From assembly GCA_028713935.1 (NCBI GenBank), contig JAQTNI010000041.1, positions 1 through 10,468 on the forward strand: 10,468 nt of DNA, in the 5' to 3' direction. Origin of the DNA: Candidatus Iainarchaeum sp. (GTDB taxonomy: Archaea; Iainarchaeota; Iainarchaeia; Iainarchaeales; GCA-2688035). Each line of letters starts with the position of its first letter. The stretch's first letter is position 1. This document shows, piece after piece, positions 1,333 to 9,139 of the stretch. A program made the position numbers and the translations under genes. A model generated the notes under the pieces. That model did not search any database, was not told where the DNA came from, and saw nothing but the letters and a program-made list of their open reading frames with translations.

Positions 1333-1488
1333 GCGGGTGTGGTCTAGTGGCTATGATTCGACCTTGCCAAGGCCTTTTCTTAAAAAGAAAAGCCCTGGGA
1401 AAAGAAGTTTTTGCTAACGCAAAAACAATTTAACCAAAATCGAAATTGCAACGAGGTCGTGGCCCGGGTTCAATTCCCGGCACCCGCA
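1333..1488 (+). tRNA. tRNA-Gly (anticodon GCC) with an 84-nt intron at canonical position 37/38 (intron about 1370-1453)
   Basis: Acceptor stem GCGGGTG/CACCCGC (1333-1339 / 1481-1487). Anticodon stem cgacc (1359-1363) pairs with ggtcg (1455-1459). Anticodon GCC is at 1366-1368. T arm is ccggg-ttcaatt-cccgg. Splice motif: a 4-bp helix 1364-1367/1448-1451 is flanked by 3-nt bulges caa (1368-1370) and cga (1452-1454). Confidence 0.85.
1371..1426 (+). repeat. B-family two-hairpin repeat, copy B2, inside the tRNA-Gly intron
   Basis: ggcc-cttttctt-aaa-aagaaaag-ccctgggaaaagaa, then hairpin gtttttgc-taac-gcaaaaac (1407-1426). It makes up the 5' two-thirds of the intron. Confidence 0.75.
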
Positions 1489-3177: not shown

Positions 3178-3861
3178 TTATAGCTTTAATTTTTTTTTCA
3201 GTTTTTTCCAGATTTCAGAATGAATGTCTTCCTGTGGCCTTACAAAAAAAGAACCGTGCTTTTTCACTGCACAATCAATTGCAATCCACCTGTTCTTTTT
3301 TGCAAGCGAAGCATAAACTTTGCGCGTGCGCTCCAGATAAGCCGCGTCTGCCTCATGCAAATCTTTTTCTGAACCCTTCCTGTAATCCTCTTTCCTGTCC
3401 TGGCCAGCCATTAATTTTTGTGCCACTTCAGTCGGCATATTCAAAAAAACAACAGCATCAGCCCTTGGCATTCTCGATTCAAGGGATTCAACCCAGAAAA
3501 GGAATTTTTTTTGTTCGGAAGCCAGGGAAAACTTTGCTGTTTGATGCGCAATATTTGACTGGACATACCTGTTCATTACAAGAATTTTTCCAGCAGAAAC
3601 CTTTTCTTCAATTTCTTTTTTTATCTGGTACCTGTCAAGGGAATAAAGCAAAGCGCAAAATTCCGGAGCCAGGCTTTTGATTGGGCCGAATTCCCCCGAA
3701 AGGTGTTTTCCAGCCAAAGAGCCAAAAAAAGAGTCGTATCTTGGAAAAGAAAAAAGCTCGGCTTCAATTCCCAAAAACTGGAGCTTTTCAAAAAACAATT
3801 TTGTTTGAGTAGCCTTGCCGCTTGCATCAGTGCCTTCAAAAACAATAATAGCGCCTTTCAT
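3178..3861 (-). CDS. tmk: Thymidylate kinase (dTMP kinase)
   Basis: 227-aa ORF. N-terminal P-loop is IIVFEGTDASGKATQ. A DRY-type motif is present (SLDRYQ). Length and layout are typical of Tmk. Confidence 0.85.
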   Translation of the reverse strand: MKGAIIVFEGTDASGKATQTKLFFEKLQFLGIEAELFSFPRYDSFFGSLAGKHLSGEFGPIKSLAPEFCALLYSLDRYQIKKEIEEKVSAGKILVMNRYVQSNIAHQTAKFSLASEQKKFLFWVESLESRMPRADAVVFLNMPTEVAQKLMAGQDRKEDYRKGSEKDLHEADAAYLERTRKVYASLAKKNRWIAIDCAVKKHGSFFVRPQEDIHSEIWKKLKKKLKL

Positions 3862-4095: not shown

Positions 4096-4881
4096 ATGCA
4101 TGGAAAAAAATCTATTGCGGGAAAGGCCAGGGAGAGCGACAGAAGGCAAGAACGCCTTGAGGCTTTTCAGCGTTTGGTTGCTTCAAACGGCTTTGTAAAC
4201 CTGCAGCAGGTCCTGAGCGTCGCAAGAAAACACAATATTCCAGAAGAACACGCAAAAAGAATTGCTTTTCAACTTGGCTTTTTGGTACGAAAGAACAGGC
4301 GCCCTACAATAGAACATATTCCTGAAAGAAATATTGCCCGAGCTAATTTGAAAATTTTTGCTGCAACTTTTAAAAAATTTGAGAAGCTATTTTGGCAATT
4401 TGCAAATCCCTATATTGCGAAAGGAGTTCCTGAAACAATGCGGTATAATTATTGCATGGATTATTCAATGGCAACTATAGGAAAATTCAGGGGCGCGCGT
4501 TCGAAACTCAATTCTTGGGTTACAAATGGATGGGCGCAGGCAATGCGATCCGCATATCGGGATTTTTTAACAAGAGAAAAAAAGGAACATACAGTCGGCT
4601 CAAAAAAGAAAGGCTATTCTTTTTGGGATACGCAGGGAAGCGAACAAATGAGGCCTGAAGAAGAAACAATTCTTTTTGAACAAAGGCAGAGACTACACAA
4701 AGCGCTAGCACAGTTGCCTGCAAGAGAACGGGAAATTATCCAGCGGTATTATGGAATTGGCACAGGGATTAGCGAGACACATCAGGAGATAGGGGACAGC
4801 TTGGGCATTTCCAGAACTGCTTCAACCCAAAATGTGGAGAGAGCGCTTAAAAAGCTCCGTGAAGCCCTGCAAGAGGAATAA
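4096..4881 (+). CDS. Sigma-70-family-like protein (region 2-like and region 4 HTH) with an N-terminal extension
   Basis: 261-aa ORF. The C-terminus LPAREREIIQRYYGIGTGISETHQEIGDSLGISRTASTQNVERALKKLREAL fits the sigma-70 region 4.1/4.2 pattern (L..RE..v...RyG......T..EIg..lgiSr..v.Q.e..AL.KLR). The central KFRGARSKLNSWVTNGWAQAMRSAYRDFLTREKK resembles region 2 (F..W....a.n...d.lR). Confidence 0.6.
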   Translation: MHGKKSIAGKARESDRRQERLEAFQRLVASNGFVNLQQVLSVARKHNIPEEHAKRIAFQLGFLVRKNRRPTIEHIPERNIARANLKIFAATFKKFEKLFWQFANPYIAKGVPETMRYNYCMDYSMATIGKFRGARSKLNSWVTNGWAQAMRSAYRDFLTREKKEHTVGSKKKGYSFWDTQGSEQMRPEEETILFEQRQRLHKALAQLPAREREIIQRYYGIGTGISETHQEIGDSLGISRTASTQNVERALKKLREALQEE

Positions 4882-5217: not shown

Positions 5218-5574
5218 CTATTTGTTTTTTCGCTTGTCGATTCCGGAACGCCTGTCGTCAAAATAATAATAACGAGTATTTCCTCTCATTTCTGGCGGAG
5301 GACGCGCATTGAGCTCTTGCATTTCTGGAGCATCCGATGGCAACAATTGTACTGGGATGGTGTTAGGAAACTTTACGGGAAGTTTGTCGCGCCCTTTGCC
5401 GATTCGCATAAGAGAAAAAACGTTGTATCCTCTTAAGCCATATCCCTGCTTTTTTAATTCTTCATAAGTGAAAAACCGTTTGCTATTTTGGCTCTGGACG
5501 GCAAACCCATCATCCAATTTCTTGATAACCCTTGTTTGGGTTATCCATTTTCCTTTTTGTTCGCGTAAATCCAT
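5218..5574 (-). CDS. Hypothetical 118-aa protein, no recognisable family
   Basis: Clean ATG ORF preceded on the minus strand by ggagttggtaaATG (SD-like). It is divergent from the AbrB-like gene and shares the palindrome-rich promoter. Confidence 0.5.
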   Translation of the reverse strand: MDLREQKGKWITQTRVIKKLDDGFAVQSQNSKRFFTYEELKKQGYGLRGYNVFSLMRIGKGRDKLPVKFPNTIPVQLLPSDAPEMQELNARPPPEMRGNTRYYYFDDRRSGIDKRKNK

Positions 5575-5590
5575 TTTACCAACTCCATTT

Positions 5591-5668
5591 TAGGTACCTA
5601 AATTAGGTACCGAAATCTTTTAAATAAGTAGGTACCTAATGATAGCATTAAAAGTCGTGGGTACCTAC
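5591..5668. promoter_or_regulatory. Divergent promoter with four GGTACC-core palindromic operator candidates around a bidirectional TATA-like element
   Basis: Sites: taggtaccta (5591-5600), taggtaccga (5604-5613), taggtaccta (5629-5638) and gggtacctac (5659-5668). The near-palindromic cttttaaataag (about 5616-5628) lies between sites 2 and 3. Only one other GGTACC occurs in the window, at 3627-3632. Confidence 0.6.
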
Positions 5669-5669
5669 T

Positions 5670-5852
5670 ATGAACGGAATGAAACTCCAAAAACAGTCAA
5701 CCAGAAAAGTAGGCACCAAAGAATATGTAAAATGGGTTACCACAATTTCCCCAAAACTAATTCAAGACCTTGATTGGAAAGAAGGCGACCAACTTGAACC
5801 ATCGACAAGAGGAAAAAAACTTATAATTCAAAAGAAAGGGGAAAAGAAATGA
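5670..5852 (+). CDS. AbrB/SpoVT/MazE-type (swapped-hairpin) small DNA-binding protein
   Basis: 60-aa ORF. VTTISPKLIQDLDWKEGDQLEPSTRGKKLIIQKK fits the AbrB-family pattern (v.IPk.i.e.Lgl.eGD.le....g..l.i.k). Confidence 0.6.
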   Translation: MNGMKLQKQSTRKVGTKEYVKWVTTISPKLIQDLDWKEGDQLEPSTRGKKLIIQKKGEKK

Positions 5853-5906
5853 CTTTTACCGGCATCGCACCGCCACCAAAAAGTTTTAGAATAAAAAATT
5901 GACGAG

Positions 5907-6881
5907 ATGAAGGAACCGTATATGACCATAGCATATGATTGTGTAAAATGCGGAAATGCGACCGATGCAAAGCAAGGTACAAAAAGATTGGCTATCCAGT
6001 TCTGCCGAGATTGTTTTGGAAAAAGGAAAGATTTACGACAAAATAGATTAAACAATTTGAATGGGAAAGAGTGGGCTGGATTTAGCAAGAGTGTTGAAGA
6101 TTACCCTGGAAATCGAACAGAAAAACAACGCGAACATGGCGCTTGTTATCCGCTTTCGCTTGCCAAACAGCAAATCAGTATTTACACAAAAAAAGGGCAC
6201 ACTGTTTTTGACCCTTTTTTGGGGGTCGGAACAACAGCAGAAGCCGCCGAAATGTTGGGAAGAAAATCCATTGGAATCGAGCTAAACAAAAAATTTGTTG
6301 AACTCGCAAAAAAAGACATAAAAAATAAAGAAAACCATACAATCATACAGGGCGACGCAAGAAACCTTTTGAAGCACATAGCCCCCAATAGCATTGATTT
6401 TCAATTAACGAGTCCACCATATGGCAATCTACTTAAAACAGTGAAAGGAGAGTTTGCGTTCAAATGGAAAGAACATTCAAAAATGAACACTGTAAAAAAT
6501 CCGATTCCCTACTCGTCCGATATAAAGGATTTAGGAAACTTACCATATGCAGAATTCATATCAAGCATTGAGAATATTTTCAAGGACAGCCTTAAAGTAC
6601 TTAAAGATGGTGCATATGCAGTATGGGTTGTAAAAGATTACCGAGACTTGGAAGAAAAAAAACCGCTCGTAAACTTTCATTCTGATATTATTCGCGCTGC
6701 CGAAAACGCGGGTTTAACCCTTTGGGACATTAAGATTTACGACCAGACAAAATTTCGCCCACTTGTTGTATTAGGCTATCCATCAAACAACTATTATCTA
6801 AACATTGGTCACTCTTATATTTTGGTTTTCAGAAAATATTTGAGTGGACGATATGCAAGAGAAACTGGTCAAAGAGTATGA
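5907..6881 (+). CDS. DNA methyltransferase 1 (N4/N6 family, SPPY type) with N-terminal zinc ribbon; AdoMet motif precedes the catalytic motif
   Basis: CVKCG...(17 aa)...CRDCF zinc ribbon. GACYPLSLAKQQISIYTKKGHTVFDPFLGVGTTAEAAEMLGRKSIGIELN matches the AdoMet-binding module of N4/N6 methylases. About 60 aa later comes IDFQLTSPPYGNL (motif IV). Then LKVLKDGAYAVWVVKD. Confidence 0.8.
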   Translation: MKEPYMTIAYDCVKCGNATDAKQGTKRLAIQFCRDCFGKRKDLRQNRLNNLNGKEWAGFSKSVEDYPGNRTEKQREHGACYPLSLAKQQISIYTKKGHTVFDPFLGVGTTAEAAEMLGRKSIGIELNKKFVELAKKDIKNKENHTIIQGDARNLLKHIAPNSIDFQLTSPPYGNLLKTVKGEFAFKWKEHSKMNTVKNPIPYSSDIKDLGNLPYAEFISSIENIFKDSLKVLKDGAYAVWVVKDYRDLEEKKPLVNFHSDIIRAAENAGLTLWDIKIYDQTKFRPLVVLGYPSNNYYLNIGHSYILVFRKYLSGRYARETGQRV

Positions 6882-7344
6882 AAAAAGCGCGAAAAACATC
6901 GCACTTGACCTTGATAACTACACTAATAACAACTATTTAACCCACAATTTTCACCCCTACCCCGCAAAGTACATACCGCAGATACCGAAGGAAATTCTTC
7001 TCCGATTATCAAAAAAAGACGATTGGATACTTGACCCATTTTGCGGCTCTGGAACGACTTTGGTAGAAGCCAAACTCTGTGGCAGGAATTCCATTGGCAG
7101 CGATATTAACCCGCTTTCTTGTATAATTACAAAAGTAAAGACAACAAAATTATCTGAAAATCAAATAAAAGAAATTCGGGAAATCTTAAATCAAGCGAGA
7201 GCAGACTTTATTAGCAAGAAAAAATACCCCGTTCCAGAATACTTAAACATTGATATGTGGTTTGACCGAGAAATAAAAGAGCAACTTGCCATCCTAAAAT
7301 ACCACATCAGTTTGGTCAAAGAGGATGAAGTCAAAATTTTTTAA
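6853..7344 (+). CDS. DNA methyltransferase 2, N-terminal fragment/subunit (AdoMet-binding motif I)
   Basis: HNFHPYPAKYIPQIPKEILLRLSKKDDWILDPFCGSGTTLVEAKLCGRNSIGSDINP. The ORF-track start is GTG 6844; the ATG is at 6853. The ORF ends at TAA 7342-7344, immediately after an A4T6 tract. Confidence 0.7.
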   Translation: MQEKLVKEYEKSAKNIALDLDNYTNNNYLTHNFHPYPAKYIPQIPKEILLRLSKKDDWILDPFCGSGTTLVEAKLCGRNSIGSDINPLSCIITKVKTTKLSENQIKEIREILNQARADFISKKKYPVPEYLNIDMWFDREIKEQLAILKYHISLVKEDEVKIF

Positions 7345-7991
7345 TGGTTGCTTTTTCTTCCATACTTGTAAAAGTGTCAAATCAAGATAGCGATACCCGT
7401 TACGCTGCAATTAAAAAAAAATTGCCACAAAATGCTGTTTGGTCTTATTTTGACAAGAAAGCAAAAGACATGCTGAAACGGATTGAAAGTTTTAACGCAG
7501 AAGCATCAAATTGTCCATGCGAAGTTTATCTTTCGGATTCTCGCAATCTGGACTTTCTCAAAAAGGAAATTGACCTTGTAATCACATCCCCGCCATATTT
7601 GAATAGCTATGATTATTACCTTTACCACAAACACCGGATGCTGTGGTTGGGACTAGACTACAGGAGTGCACAAGAAAAAGAATTTGGCTCAAGGAACAAG
7701 CATAGTGATAACCATGAAGGTATAGAAAGCTATGTAGATGCAGTAACCGCGAGCGTAAGTCATATTTCAAAAAATCTGAAAAAAAACGCGCATTTCTGTG
7801 TAATCATTGGCGACGCAATATTAAAAGGGGAAATTATAAAAATGAATGCGATCTTTGACGAAATTTTTCTAAAACAAGGATATACAAAAACTCGCGAAAT
7901 TCGTTTTGAGCAAAGAAAGTACACAAGAACATTTACCCCAAATATTAAAACCAAATTCAAGGAGTCATATATTCTAATATATCGGCGTTAA
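7344..7991 (+). CDS. DNA methyltransferase 2, C-terminal fragment/subunit (catalytic SPPY motif IV)
   Basis: Contains IDLVITSPPYLNSYDYY and HFCVIIGD. The ATG overlaps the upstream stop (TAATG). The frame is open only from 7329. Its stop overlaps the convergent nuclease stop (ttaa, 7988-7991). Confidence 0.7.
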   Translation: MVAFSSILVKVSNQDSDTRYAAIKKKLPQNAVWSYFDKKAKDMLKRIESFNAEASNCPCEVYLSDSRNLDFLKKEIDLVITSPPYLNSYDYYLYHKHRMLWLGLDYRSAQEKEFGSRNKHSDNHEGIESYVDAVTASVSHISKNLKKNAHFCVIIGDAILKGEIIKMNAIFDEIFLKQGYTKTREIRFEQRKYTRTFTPNIKTKFKESYILIYRR

Positions 7992-9139
7992 AGCGAAGAA
8001 TATCTTTTATCGCCAAAAGAAGAATATTCCGTTGAACTTTTTGAGATTACTCTAACTATAAACCAAACATCAGGGTTATCCGTCAATTTGAACTCCAAAA
8101 TATCGCCGCTTGAAAGAGAATTTAACATTGTTCGATTTAGAAATGTAAATCGCAATTCTTGATTCTTTCGTGCATGGGTTGGGGCGGGCAAGTAGTGAAT
8201 TGCTCTGACATTATTGAGTCGATTTTTTTCACCTGCTGAATCTAGCATAATAATATTAAAAAAAACGTCTGCTTGTCTGGCGTCACTTTCGGTGGTAACC
8301 CAATCAGAAAACGGTGGAAAATAGGTCAAAAACTGAATAGGTATTACTATTTGGCCTGGGGAACTGGTTTGGCTCACGTCATTTTTAGATAACTTTTTCC
8401 AAAAACCGCGATTGATTGAGGATATTCCAGTAACTTCCAAATTTTGTTCATCTCGTTGGTGTATGATAGTAACGGGCGGCGGGCGAAAGGATTCTGAACC
8501 AAATATTGGTTCCTTTCCAGCAGATTGGGATTCAAATCGGCTCCCGTATCCTGCCCCAGATTCAACTTCCTCATTCCCCAAATAATTTTTTTGAATGAGT
8601 CGATTAAGTAGTTCGGGTGAAAGGCACTTACAACAGGGCGAGGTTGCACTTGAATAAGAGGAAAATATCGATTTGTATTTTGAATACTCCGTTAGTTGTT
8701 CTTGGTTTGTCAAATCAAAATCATACTGGCAGTTTATTTCATAATTTGTGTATAGCCCACCCGCAGTTAGATTACTTGAACCAACGATAACTATAGCCCG
8801 CAAATTATTTTTTTCAAAAAAATATATTTTGGGGTGAAACGTTTGGGTTATGCTCTCGCTATGATACACATAAAGCTCATCACACAATGGGAGTAACATC
8901 TGAAGCCCTTGTTGCGAAGTATTTTTTTGGTCAATCCCAACGATTCCTTTAATGTGCCCGCCCGATTGTCGAAATCGTTGAAGATATGGCTGTAATCGAA
9001 TTACTCCGCTTTTCTTTACATACGCCGCCATGAAATAGAAGGTATCAAAGGAATCTGTTTGTGGGAGGTTCAGAAGTTCTGCGAGTTTTTCCCCTGCCTT
9101 TTTGTTTCGGGGCTGGTCAATAAGTTCAATCCAAGTCAT
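7988..9139 (-). CDS. Restriction endonuclease candidate: N-terminal HKD/PLD-family nuclease fused to a C-terminal B3/EcoRII-N-like DNA-binding domain (BfiI-like)
   Basis: 383-aa ORF. It has a single HKD motif, HPKIYFFEKNNLRAIVIVGSSNLTAGG (HxK...GSxN). The C-terminal GFWKKLSKNDVSQTSSPGQIVIPIQFLTYFP ... SGDILEFK fits the F.K.Ls.nDv......q..IP......fP ... GD...F pattern of B3 / EcoRII N-terminal pseudobarrels. Confidence 0.7.
   Translation of the reverse strand: MTWIELIDQPRNKKAGEKLAELLNLPQTDSFDTFYFMAAYVKKSGVIRLQPYLQRFRQSGGHIKGIVGIDQKNTSQQGLQMLLPLCDELYVYHSESITQTFHPKIYFFEKNNLRAIVIVGSSNLTAGGLYTNYEINCQYDFDLTNQEQLTEYSKYKSIFSSYSSATSPCCKCLSPELLNRLIQKNYLGNEEVESGAGYGSRFESQSAGKEPIFGSESFRPPPVTIIHQRDEQNLEVTGISSINRGFWKKLSKNDVSQTSSPGQIVIPIQFLTYFPPFSDWVTTESDARQADVFFNIIMLDSAGEKNRLNNVRAIHYLPAPTHARKNQELRFTFLNRTMLNSLSSGDILEFKLTDNPDVWFIVRVISKSSTEYSSFGDKRYSSL

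Follow-up and report, generated by a model that had tools for sequence, protein, structure and literature searches.

Positions 1 to 10,468 of contig JAQTNI010000041.1, which is the whole of that contig and is called the window below, belong to a metagenome-assembled genome (MAG) of Candidatus Iainarchaeum sp., a host that we take, from its name at face value, to be a DPANN archaeon. On the plus strand a small gene of the AbrB type precedes two DNA methyltransferase genes, toward which a restriction endonuclease gene converges, and an open reading frame (ORF) of 118 amino acids departs from it on the other strand (Table 1). Four short palindromes built on a GGTACC core are packed between the two divergent genes, interspersed with two TATA-like boxes. 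Similar palindromes accompany a family of small AbrB-like proteins in several archaeal phyla, and the arrangement probably makes up an autoregulated divergent promoter.

An array of palindromes between divergent genes

The window holds five copies of GGTACC, at 3627, 5593, 5606, 5631 and 5660, four of which are inside 5593-5665. None of the 200 dinucleotide-preserving shuffles of the window that served as a null gives five copies (mean 0.48, maximum 3), in agreement with an earlier interpretation made from the letters alone (the sequence-only reading), which had noted that the hexamer occurs just once elsewhere and that its clustering is not random. In the same way, TAGGTACCTA with up to two mismatches finds 5 matches where 1.15 are expected, all in 5591-5719. 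The sequence-only reading had placed the first three sites correctly (TAGGTACCTA at 5591 and 5629, TAGGTACCGA at 5604); its fourth, GGGTACCTAC at 5659-5668, is real but shifted by one base, and is better framed as TGGGTACCTA. The four sites follow one another with centre-to-centre spacings of 13, 25 and 29 bp.

A weight matrix derived from the other loci of the family described below, excluding both the window and its close homologue L001, recovers exactly these four sites, at 15.3-22.3 bits, for a shuffle null with its 95% value at 15.7 bits and its maximum at 18.2 bits. The stray GGTACC at 3627 scores 1.7 bits, and nothing in the window outside 5588-5722 exceeds 2.7 bits. A degenerate fifth motif, 52 bp from site 4 and within the coding sequence of the AbrB-like protein, has TAGGTACCAA as its counterpart in L001 (434-443); one possibility is an operator downstream of the others, the alternative being a chance product of Gly-Thr codons.

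Three Logan assemblies, from other sequencing runs, match the region at 100% identity. Two of them (L002 and L003) span the whole array and the third (L004) stops at 5628, short of site 3; as independent assemblies reproduce the region, the array is not an assembly artefact. Nor is it a plausible terminator, the terminator-like hairpin called at 5593-5611 being site 1 paired with site 2, between divergent genes, or a known RNA family, since the Rfam matches in the window are tRNAs only.

Table 1. Features of the array and of the genes around it; scores are bits in the family weight matrix.
Feature	Position	Strand	Description	Score
Orphan 118-aa ORF	5218-5574	-	Divergent; in the place of the DDE transposase gene of most family loci	
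Site 1	5591-5600		Perfect 10-bp palindrome TAGGTACCTA	22.3
Site 2	5604-5613		TAGGTACCGA, 9/10 match to the palindrome	21.1
TATA-like box A	5618-5627		TTTTAAATAA, flanked by sites 2 and 3 (offsets +6 and -19)	
Site 3	5629-5638		Perfect palindrome TAGGTACCTA, between the two TATA-like boxes	20.4
TATA-like box B	5647-5654	+	ATTAAAAG, conserved in L001 as GATAGyATTAAAA	
Site 4	5658-5667		TGGGTACCTA, 9/10, between box B and the start codon	15.3
AbrB/MazE/SpoVT-fold gene	5679-5852	+	57 aa from ATG 5679; 60 aa from ATG 5670	
Degenerate fifth motif	5710-5719		TAGGCACCAA, codons V-G-T-K of the AbrB-like gene	14.1 (under the 95% null, 15.7)
M1, N6/N4 DNA methyltransferase	5907-6881	+	PF01555, E=8.7e-28; 54 nt downstream of the AbrB-like gene	
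M2, second N6/N4 DNA methyltransferase	6844-7991	+	PF01555 on both halves	
Restriction endonuclease, phospholipase D (PLD) type	7988-9139	-	NgoFVII/BfiI-like; PF13091, PF09565; convergent with the methyltransferases	

The small AbrB-like protein

The gene that follows the array can be read from two start codons. The second, ATG 5679, which gives a protein of 57 residues, is probably the true one, because most of the 150 listed representative homologues start at residue 4 of the 60-aa query and because residues 2-3 of the longer form differ between the two closest sequences. Taken alone, the window protein matches PF04014 at a sub-threshold level (E=0.022, 15 bits for a cut-off of 24.7) and TIGR01439 under the cut-off as well (E=0.0076). 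Its relatives speak more clearly: PF04014 is matched by 34 of 38 aligned homologues, with a best E of 6.5e-10, and the best match of the family profile in the PDB is the N-terminal domain of AbrB (E=0.025). A profile search of 1.84 billion representatives yielded 257 relatives at E<=1e-3, and a search of 90% clusters at least 1,671 protein clusters at E<=1e-5.

The AlphaFold monomer model (mean predicted confidence, pLDDT, 89.6) has the order strand-strand-helix-strand-strand, with strands at residues 4-11 and 14-20, a helix at 25-30 and strands at 39-44 and 47-52. Foldseek places it nearest MazE (1ub4, probability 1.00), the AbrB N-domain (1yfb, 2k1n), SpoVT (2w1t), Sso7c4 (2l66) and proteins C68 and C56 of pSSVx and pSSVi; weak E-values are expected here, as the model covers a single chain of 57 residues from what is a domain-swapped dimer. 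By profile and predicted fold alike, the protein is assigned to the AbrB/MazE/SpoVT swapped-hairpin superfamily (PF04014), and palindromes of 10 bp are consistent with recognition by a symmetric dimer of such a protein. Members of the family are 53-57 aa long, which amounts to the DNA-binding domain alone, without a C-terminal toxin-binding tail. Residues L3/Q4/K5, R9/K10 and Y16/K18 are invariant. Phage and plasmid records contain no match to the family and IMG/VR contains one locus, so that the family is not typically viral or plasmid-borne.

The motif accompanies the gene across archaea

A genome scan with a 10-sequence subset of the alignment uncovered 80 further loci of the family, in Woese-, Pace-, Nano-, Aenigmat- and Micrarchaeota, Bathyarchaeia, Nitrosopumilaceae and one Methanosarcinales MAG. 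CP010426.1 and OZ245040.1 are examples of complete genomes with the family. Over 81 loci from at least five archaeal lineages, the 160-nt stretches that precede the AbrB-like gene, 12.7 kb in all, contain 190 copies of GGTACC (15.0/kb), against 57 in the other 507 kb (0.11/kb), an enrichment of about 133-fold. At least one site is present in 77 of the 81 loci and at least two in 64. In almost all of them the 130 nt ahead of the gene hold T(A/C)GGTACCTA(A) between one and four times. The consensus is T-[A/C]-GGTACC-T-A, with next to no variation in the T and A at +/-4 and +/-5. Even among the 57 other copies, many match the extended motif in promoter-like regions, belonging either to a displaced transposase promoter or to the promoter of a convergent proteasome-like gene. 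Comparison with homologous cassettes, a check proposed by the sequence-only reading, thus finds the palindromes conserved.

Only one close homologue of the window protein was found, L001 (73% identity), on a metagenome contig of 1.46 kb that carries, in this order, the C-terminal fragment of a tyrosine recombinase, the AbrB-like gene and an overlapping methyltransferase gene of a different type. DNA similarity between the window and L001 spans site 3, GATAGyATTAAAA, site 4 (which in L001 is a perfect TAGGTACCTA) and the gene, and ends at the stop codon of the latter. A metagenome scan for close relatives returned L001 again and one further locus, L086, only, and the R-M-linked subtype, that associated with restriction-modification (R-M) genes, therefore rests on two loci. 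In the family at large the motif is present with IS240-type transposases, with DDE_Tnp_1 transposases, and with an integrase and a methyltransferase in L001; it is also present where the upstream neighbour is no divergent transposase, L017, L022, L034 and L086 being cases in point. Judged by these associations, the motif follows the AbrB-like gene and not the neighbouring gene.

Promoter geometry

Between sites 2 and 3 lies a TATA-like string, cttttaaataag (5617-5628), correctly pointed out in the sequence-only reading as a TATA-like element and proposed there as a single promoter that could serve both directions. The idea of one shared box is not supported, as there are two boxes. Box A, within the string, probably drives the minus-strand 118-aa ORF and is also a candidate for a second, more distal promoter of the plus-strand operon. 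The proximal promoter of the AbrB-like gene is probably box B, because the DNA match with L001 runs from site 3 onwards with GATAGyATTAAAA included.

Sites and TATA-like boxes keep a fixed register across the family, in two modes. In the first, a TATA-like octamer begins 5-7 nt past the GGTACC core, so that the site covers the B recognition element (BRE); in the second, the core ends 19-20 nt after the start of the octamer, and the site falls between the TATA and the start codon. The window offsets are those of the family: +6 for site 2 and box A, the core of site 2 stopping 6 nt before the box, and -19 for box A with site 3 as well as for box B with site 4, the latter site occupying the classical archaeal repressor position. 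With respect to the start codon, site centres in the family cluster at -40, -66, -91, or -8 to -19. Positions 5641-5667 are a direct repeat, 70% identical, of 5612-5638, and therefore the window appears to hold a tandem duplication of a 'TATA plus site' unit. Thaum- and Bathyarchaeal loci share the layout of the window, namely divergent gene start, two close sites, TATA, site, TATA, sometimes with one further site between the second TATA box and the gene.

In archaea the centre of the TATA box usually lies about 26 nt from the transcription start. With this spacing, box B is predicted to direct a start at about 5676-5677 on the plus strand, which would give a leaderless mRNA from ATG 5679, and box A to direct starts at about 5648 (plus) and about 5596 (minus). 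The latter is inside site 1, and the minus-strand transcript would begin with a 5' leader of about 20 nt, with GGAG ahead of the 118-aa ORF. A scan for bacterial sigma-70 promoters is uninformative for an archaeon.

Usual neighbours of the module

In other genomes a DDE transposase gene usually takes the divergent position upstream; this holds for at least 47 of 74 loci, with PF13610 (IS240/IS6-like, DDE_Tnp_IS240) in 43 and PF01609 (DDE_Tnp_1) in four more. In DPANN genomes, transposase and AbrB-like genes form a unit of about 1.17 kb that retains 75-91% DNA identity between MAGs with different flanks, and that is found twice in the same MAG in two instances (L012 with L038, L018 with L040). 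As copies lie in varying flanks and single MAGs hold two of them, the unit behaves, by its distribution, as a mobile unit. It does not qualify as a defined insertion sequence (IS): no terminal inverted repeats were found at the unit ends in L009, L010, L014, L018 and L029, a weak negative as these ends are only roughly defined. Neighbours downstream of the gene (72 loci) are heterogeneous, their largest cluster being a convergent proteasome-like gene (16 loci), and the per-family Pfam counts listed for them include no toxin family. R-M neighbours are rare in the family (L001, L047, L064). The R-M link would thus be local to the window and the module, judging from the company it keeps, is not R-M-specific.

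In L035 and L076 the AbrB-like gene and its GGTACC sites are paired with a DDE_Tnp_1 transposase (IS4/IS5-type), and therefore the cassette has been combined with unrelated transposases. The proteasome-like gene codes for about 300 aa with a weak match to Proteasome (PF00227), some 0.9-1.2 kb downstream of the AbrB-like start; its probable 5' end carries T(C/A)GGTACC(T/G)A in 13 loci (L046, L048, L054-L056, L059, L061, L066, L067, L069, L073, L080, L082), and the gene thus appears to belong to the regulon as well, or else to the mobile unit. In L027, L031, L052, L060, L071 and L075 a site-bearing promoter region is situated 0.65-2.2 kb upstream, with other ORFs in between; these remote regions have the transposase-side layout, with two sites each and three in L031, which suggests either cargo inserted in the unit or several promoters under one regulator.

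A probable autoregulated divergent promoter

We consider it likely that the four palindromes are operators for the AbrB/SpoVT-fold protein encoded just downstream, and that together with the two TATA-like boxes they constitute a bidirectional, negatively autoregulated cassette. This is in outline what the sequence-only reading had proposed in taking the palindromes for repressor operators of a divergent promoter, and the comparison supports it, with sites in 77 of 81 loci and a fixed TATA register; as the motif tracks the gene family in the same proportion, the AbrB-like protein is the likely binder that it had suggested. The other candidate binder put forward there, the 118-aa protein, is an unlikely one: its only homologues are identical copies, it carries no Pfam or NCBIfam domain and it shows no similarity to the transposases of the family. 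On the same grounds it was rejected as a transposase remnant; its single-sequence AlphaFold model (pLDDT 53) is uninformative.

When the regulator is absent, TATA-binding protein (TBP) and transcription factor B (TFB) would occupy boxes A and B. The AbrB-like gene would then be transcribed on the plus strand as a leaderless message, with possible read-through into M1 and M2, and the 118-aa ORF on the minus strand. As the protein builds up, symmetric dimers would fill the 10-bp palindromes. Sites 2 and 3 lie directly against box A, where the BRE is expected, box B has site 3 on one side and site 4 on the other, and sites 1 and 4 sit over the predicted start sites; we infer that a dimer bound to each palindrome would block both TBP/TFB binding and the recruitment of RNA polymerase, in both directions, and that this negative autoregulation would establish a low set point of expression. 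The cassette would be a portable module, which in most genomes would control a divergent DDE transposase; in the window and in L001 it precedes DNA methyltransferase genes and would there limit methyltransferase synthesis after establishment, much as an R-M controller does. What was observed is that the sites cluster and are palindromic, that the protein falls in this fold class, that motif and gene go together in different phyla, and that the sites keep a fixed register with TATA-like boxes and start codons.

Some points weigh against this account. The window protein by itself falls below the Pfam and TIGRFAM cut-offs, and its best Foldseek E is only 0.05. The spacings between the sites have no obvious helical phasing. 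The whole case for binding, footprint and start sites is comparative. The regulation might also be positive, because in many loci the promoter-proximal site is just upstream of the TATA, a position that fits activation by TFB recruitment too. Control of the R-M genes is uncertain: the gap before M1 contains a TATA-like TTTTAGAATAAAAAAT (5884-5899) ahead of ATG 5922, and M1 may therefore have its own promoter and start at that codon. In L001, by contrast, the stop codon of the regulator overlaps the methyltransferase start, which argues for one operon.

The sequence-only reading had linked the array to delayed or autoregulated expression of the R-M genes. Autoregulation of the AbrB-like and methyltransferase genes is plausible, but a delay of the restriction enzyme is not directly possible, because the module is not R-M-specific and because no family-type site exists near the enzyme gene, its upstream region included, in the weight-matrix scan. 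If the array regulates R-M genes here, it would limit the synthesis of the methyltransferases rather than time the restriction enzyme. Methyltransferases that repress themselves and so limit their own synthesis are familiar from SsoII-type systems.

Other explanations

As a hexamer, GGTACC is among the classic restriction sites, and here it clusters beside two methyltransferase genes and a restriction enzyme gene, so that it might be the recognition sequence of the adjacent system, methylation feeding back on its own promoter as in the CfrBI type. We rejected this on comparative grounds and hold it to be highly improbable: the extended 10-bp motif is found in 77 of the 81 loci, nearly all of them without R-M genes, the T and A at +/-4 and +/-5, outside the 6-bp core, are conserved too, and L001 retains the motif before a methyltransferase of an unrelated type. 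Moreover, the layout of BfiI-type systems, a PLD nuclease with two methyltransferases, suggests an asymmetric rather than a palindromic target, and this is the layout of the window. Hardly better placed is a type II toxin-antitoxin reading, with the 60-aa protein as antitoxin and the palindromes as operator of the pair. Source databases do label family members 'antitoxin component of MazEF', and the fold matches MazE and VapB; yet there is no conserved toxin partner, the genes downstream being heterogeneous with the proteasome-like gene as the largest cluster, the next gene in the window codes for a methyltransferase, and the proteins lack the tail that would hold a toxin. The toxin-antitoxin reading was accordingly dismissed, its conserved toxin partner being absent among the downstream neighbours, and its probability seems to us very slight.

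The frequent pairing with transposases invites another explanation, in which the palindromes are binding sites of a transposase or recombinase, left over from an IS-like element and without a transcriptional role in the window. The DDE transposases that are divergent neighbours in at least 47 of 74 loci and the multi-copy DPANN unit with its varying flanks are in its favour. It is nevertheless improbable, as the sites lie between two genes and not at the ends of the unit, where no terminal inverted repeats bear them; as they are paired with two unrelated superfamilies of transposases and retained in loci that have no divergent transposase next to them (the window, L001, L017, L022, L034, L086); and as their spacing to TATA-like boxes and start codons is fixed. 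A last alternative accepts the AbrB-like protein as the ligand of the sites and makes it mainly an activator, or a factor with a dual role, that recruits TFB and TBP from upstream of the BRE and TATA. Archaeal activators usually bind upstream of the BRE, and in the commonest architecture of the family the TATA-like box follows the site by 5-7 nt, and the centre of the site is about 40 nt ahead of the start codon. That upstream site, however, overlaps the BRE instead of lying clear of it, and in the second common architecture, that of sites 3 and 4 of the window, the site is between TATA and start codon, where a repressor would be; activation therefore strikes us as unlikely.

Comparison with known systems

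A functional parallel to an autoregulated cassette of this kind is offered by the controller (C) proteins of R-M systems and their C-boxes (C.PvuII, C.AhdI, C.Esp1396I, C.Kpn2I). In both cases a tiny DNA-binding protein heads an R-M transcription unit, tandem palindromic operators (here predicted, four within 90 nt upstream) overlap its own promoter, and autoregulation, which we infer in the present case, sets expression after entry into a new host. There are also differences, two of which, in the HTH fold and in the link to the restriction enzyme gene, concern defining traits of C proteins. C proteins are bacterial, have an Xre-type helix-turn-helix (HTH) and act at sigma-70 promoters, whereas the present protein has an AbrB-like fold with a single short helix and an archaeal TATA/BRE promoter; C proteins are usually co-transcribed with the restriction enzyme, while the AbrB-like gene precedes M1 and M2 and the gene for the enzyme is convergent and free of sites. 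The AbrB-like family, unlike C proteins, is mostly without R-M association.

Within its own fold, the protein resembles Sso7c4 (2l66), C68 of pSSVx (3o27) and C56 of pSSVi (7xi6), each a single swapped-hairpin domain of about 55-68 aa, even though no sequence relationship is detectable beyond the fold. C68 and C56 are encoded on archaeal mobile elements (PMC3159460). In the texts searched, none of the three is described as having a transposase partner or a specified 10-bp operator of deep conservation. AbrB-type antitoxins (MazE, VapB) have the same fold, and their dimers bind inverted repeats in their promoters and autorepress, as the present protein may do; in contrast to them, it has neither a toxin gene nor a toxin-binding tail. 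A further likeness is with the transposition repressors encoded by insertion sequences (InsA of IS1) and with IS6/IS240 elements, as the promoter of the paired DDE transposase carries the same sites, which implies that in most loci of the family the synthesis of the transposase would be repressed by the AbrB-like protein. According to a review of the IS6 family, only one of its members has a passenger gene, and those found in archaea all come from Eury- and Crenarchaeota (PMC7986276); a 2026 survey of archaeal insertion sequences mentions neither AbrB nor passenger genes. Unlike IS6/IS240 elements, the present unit has no terminal repeats that could be found, its cassette is also met with DDE_Tnp_1, and the window has no transposase (best tblastn E=0.26). 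What is distinctive is the very deep conservation of the operator and the modular association with transposases and, here, with R-M genes. In the full-text literature on the motif, on AbrB with transposases and on AbrB with R-M systems in archaea, the module was not found, which by itself does not prove it new.

Transcriptional regulation in DPANN and other uncultured archaea is little known, and archaeal regulators with a defined operator are scarce. In the present case both a regulator family and its operator emerge straight from sequence, in view of the 133-fold enrichment and of a promoter geometry conserved in several archaeal phyla, and a single 57-aa protein together with a 100-bp fragment would suffice to test the hypothesis. 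If true, it would show how archaeal transposases stay quiet, give a first example of an archaeal R-M module autoregulated by a non-HTH protein, and yield a small, portable archaeal promoter that limits its own activity, of use in genetic tools. A broader view, which we hold only tentatively and with somewhat more doubt than conviction, is that of a previously undescribed pan-archaeal 'plug-in' cassette, in which an AbrB-fold repressor of 53-57 aa is coupled to a TAGGTACCTA operator that hardly varies and stands in fixed TATA register, and which selfish or defence genes have repeatedly captured. The captors would be DDE transposases of two superfamilies, the proteasome-like gene, an integrase-linked methyltransferase and the BfiI-like R-M system; in the window the cassette would be a functional counterpart of R-M controller proteins, the first that is archaeal and lacks an HTH, and the family would be a dedicated transposase repressor from DPANN to Nitrosopumilaceae.

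Other genes in the window

The N-terminus of M1 (5907-6030) has a CxxC...CxxC zinc ribbon. M2 is broken into two ORFs in the window by a run of four A (7333-7336), where the Logan assembly L002 has five A and one continuous ORF; the difference could be a homopolymer assembly error or a real heterogeneity of the population, akin to phase variation. The restriction endonuclease matches the structure of BfiI (2c1l) with E=0.0014. Archaeal housekeeping genes are represented by S19e, the RNase P subunit Rpr2 and a PDCD5-like dsDNA-binding protein. Rfam further identifies a third tRNA at 1333-1488 (plus strand), which ARAGORN missed and which, with its 156 nt, presumably contains an intron. Finally, positions 4096-4881 (plus strand) code for a protein of 261 aa with a bacterial-type Sigma-70 region 4 HTH (PF04545, E=2.6e-13), an unexpected domain in an organism that uses TBP and TFB.

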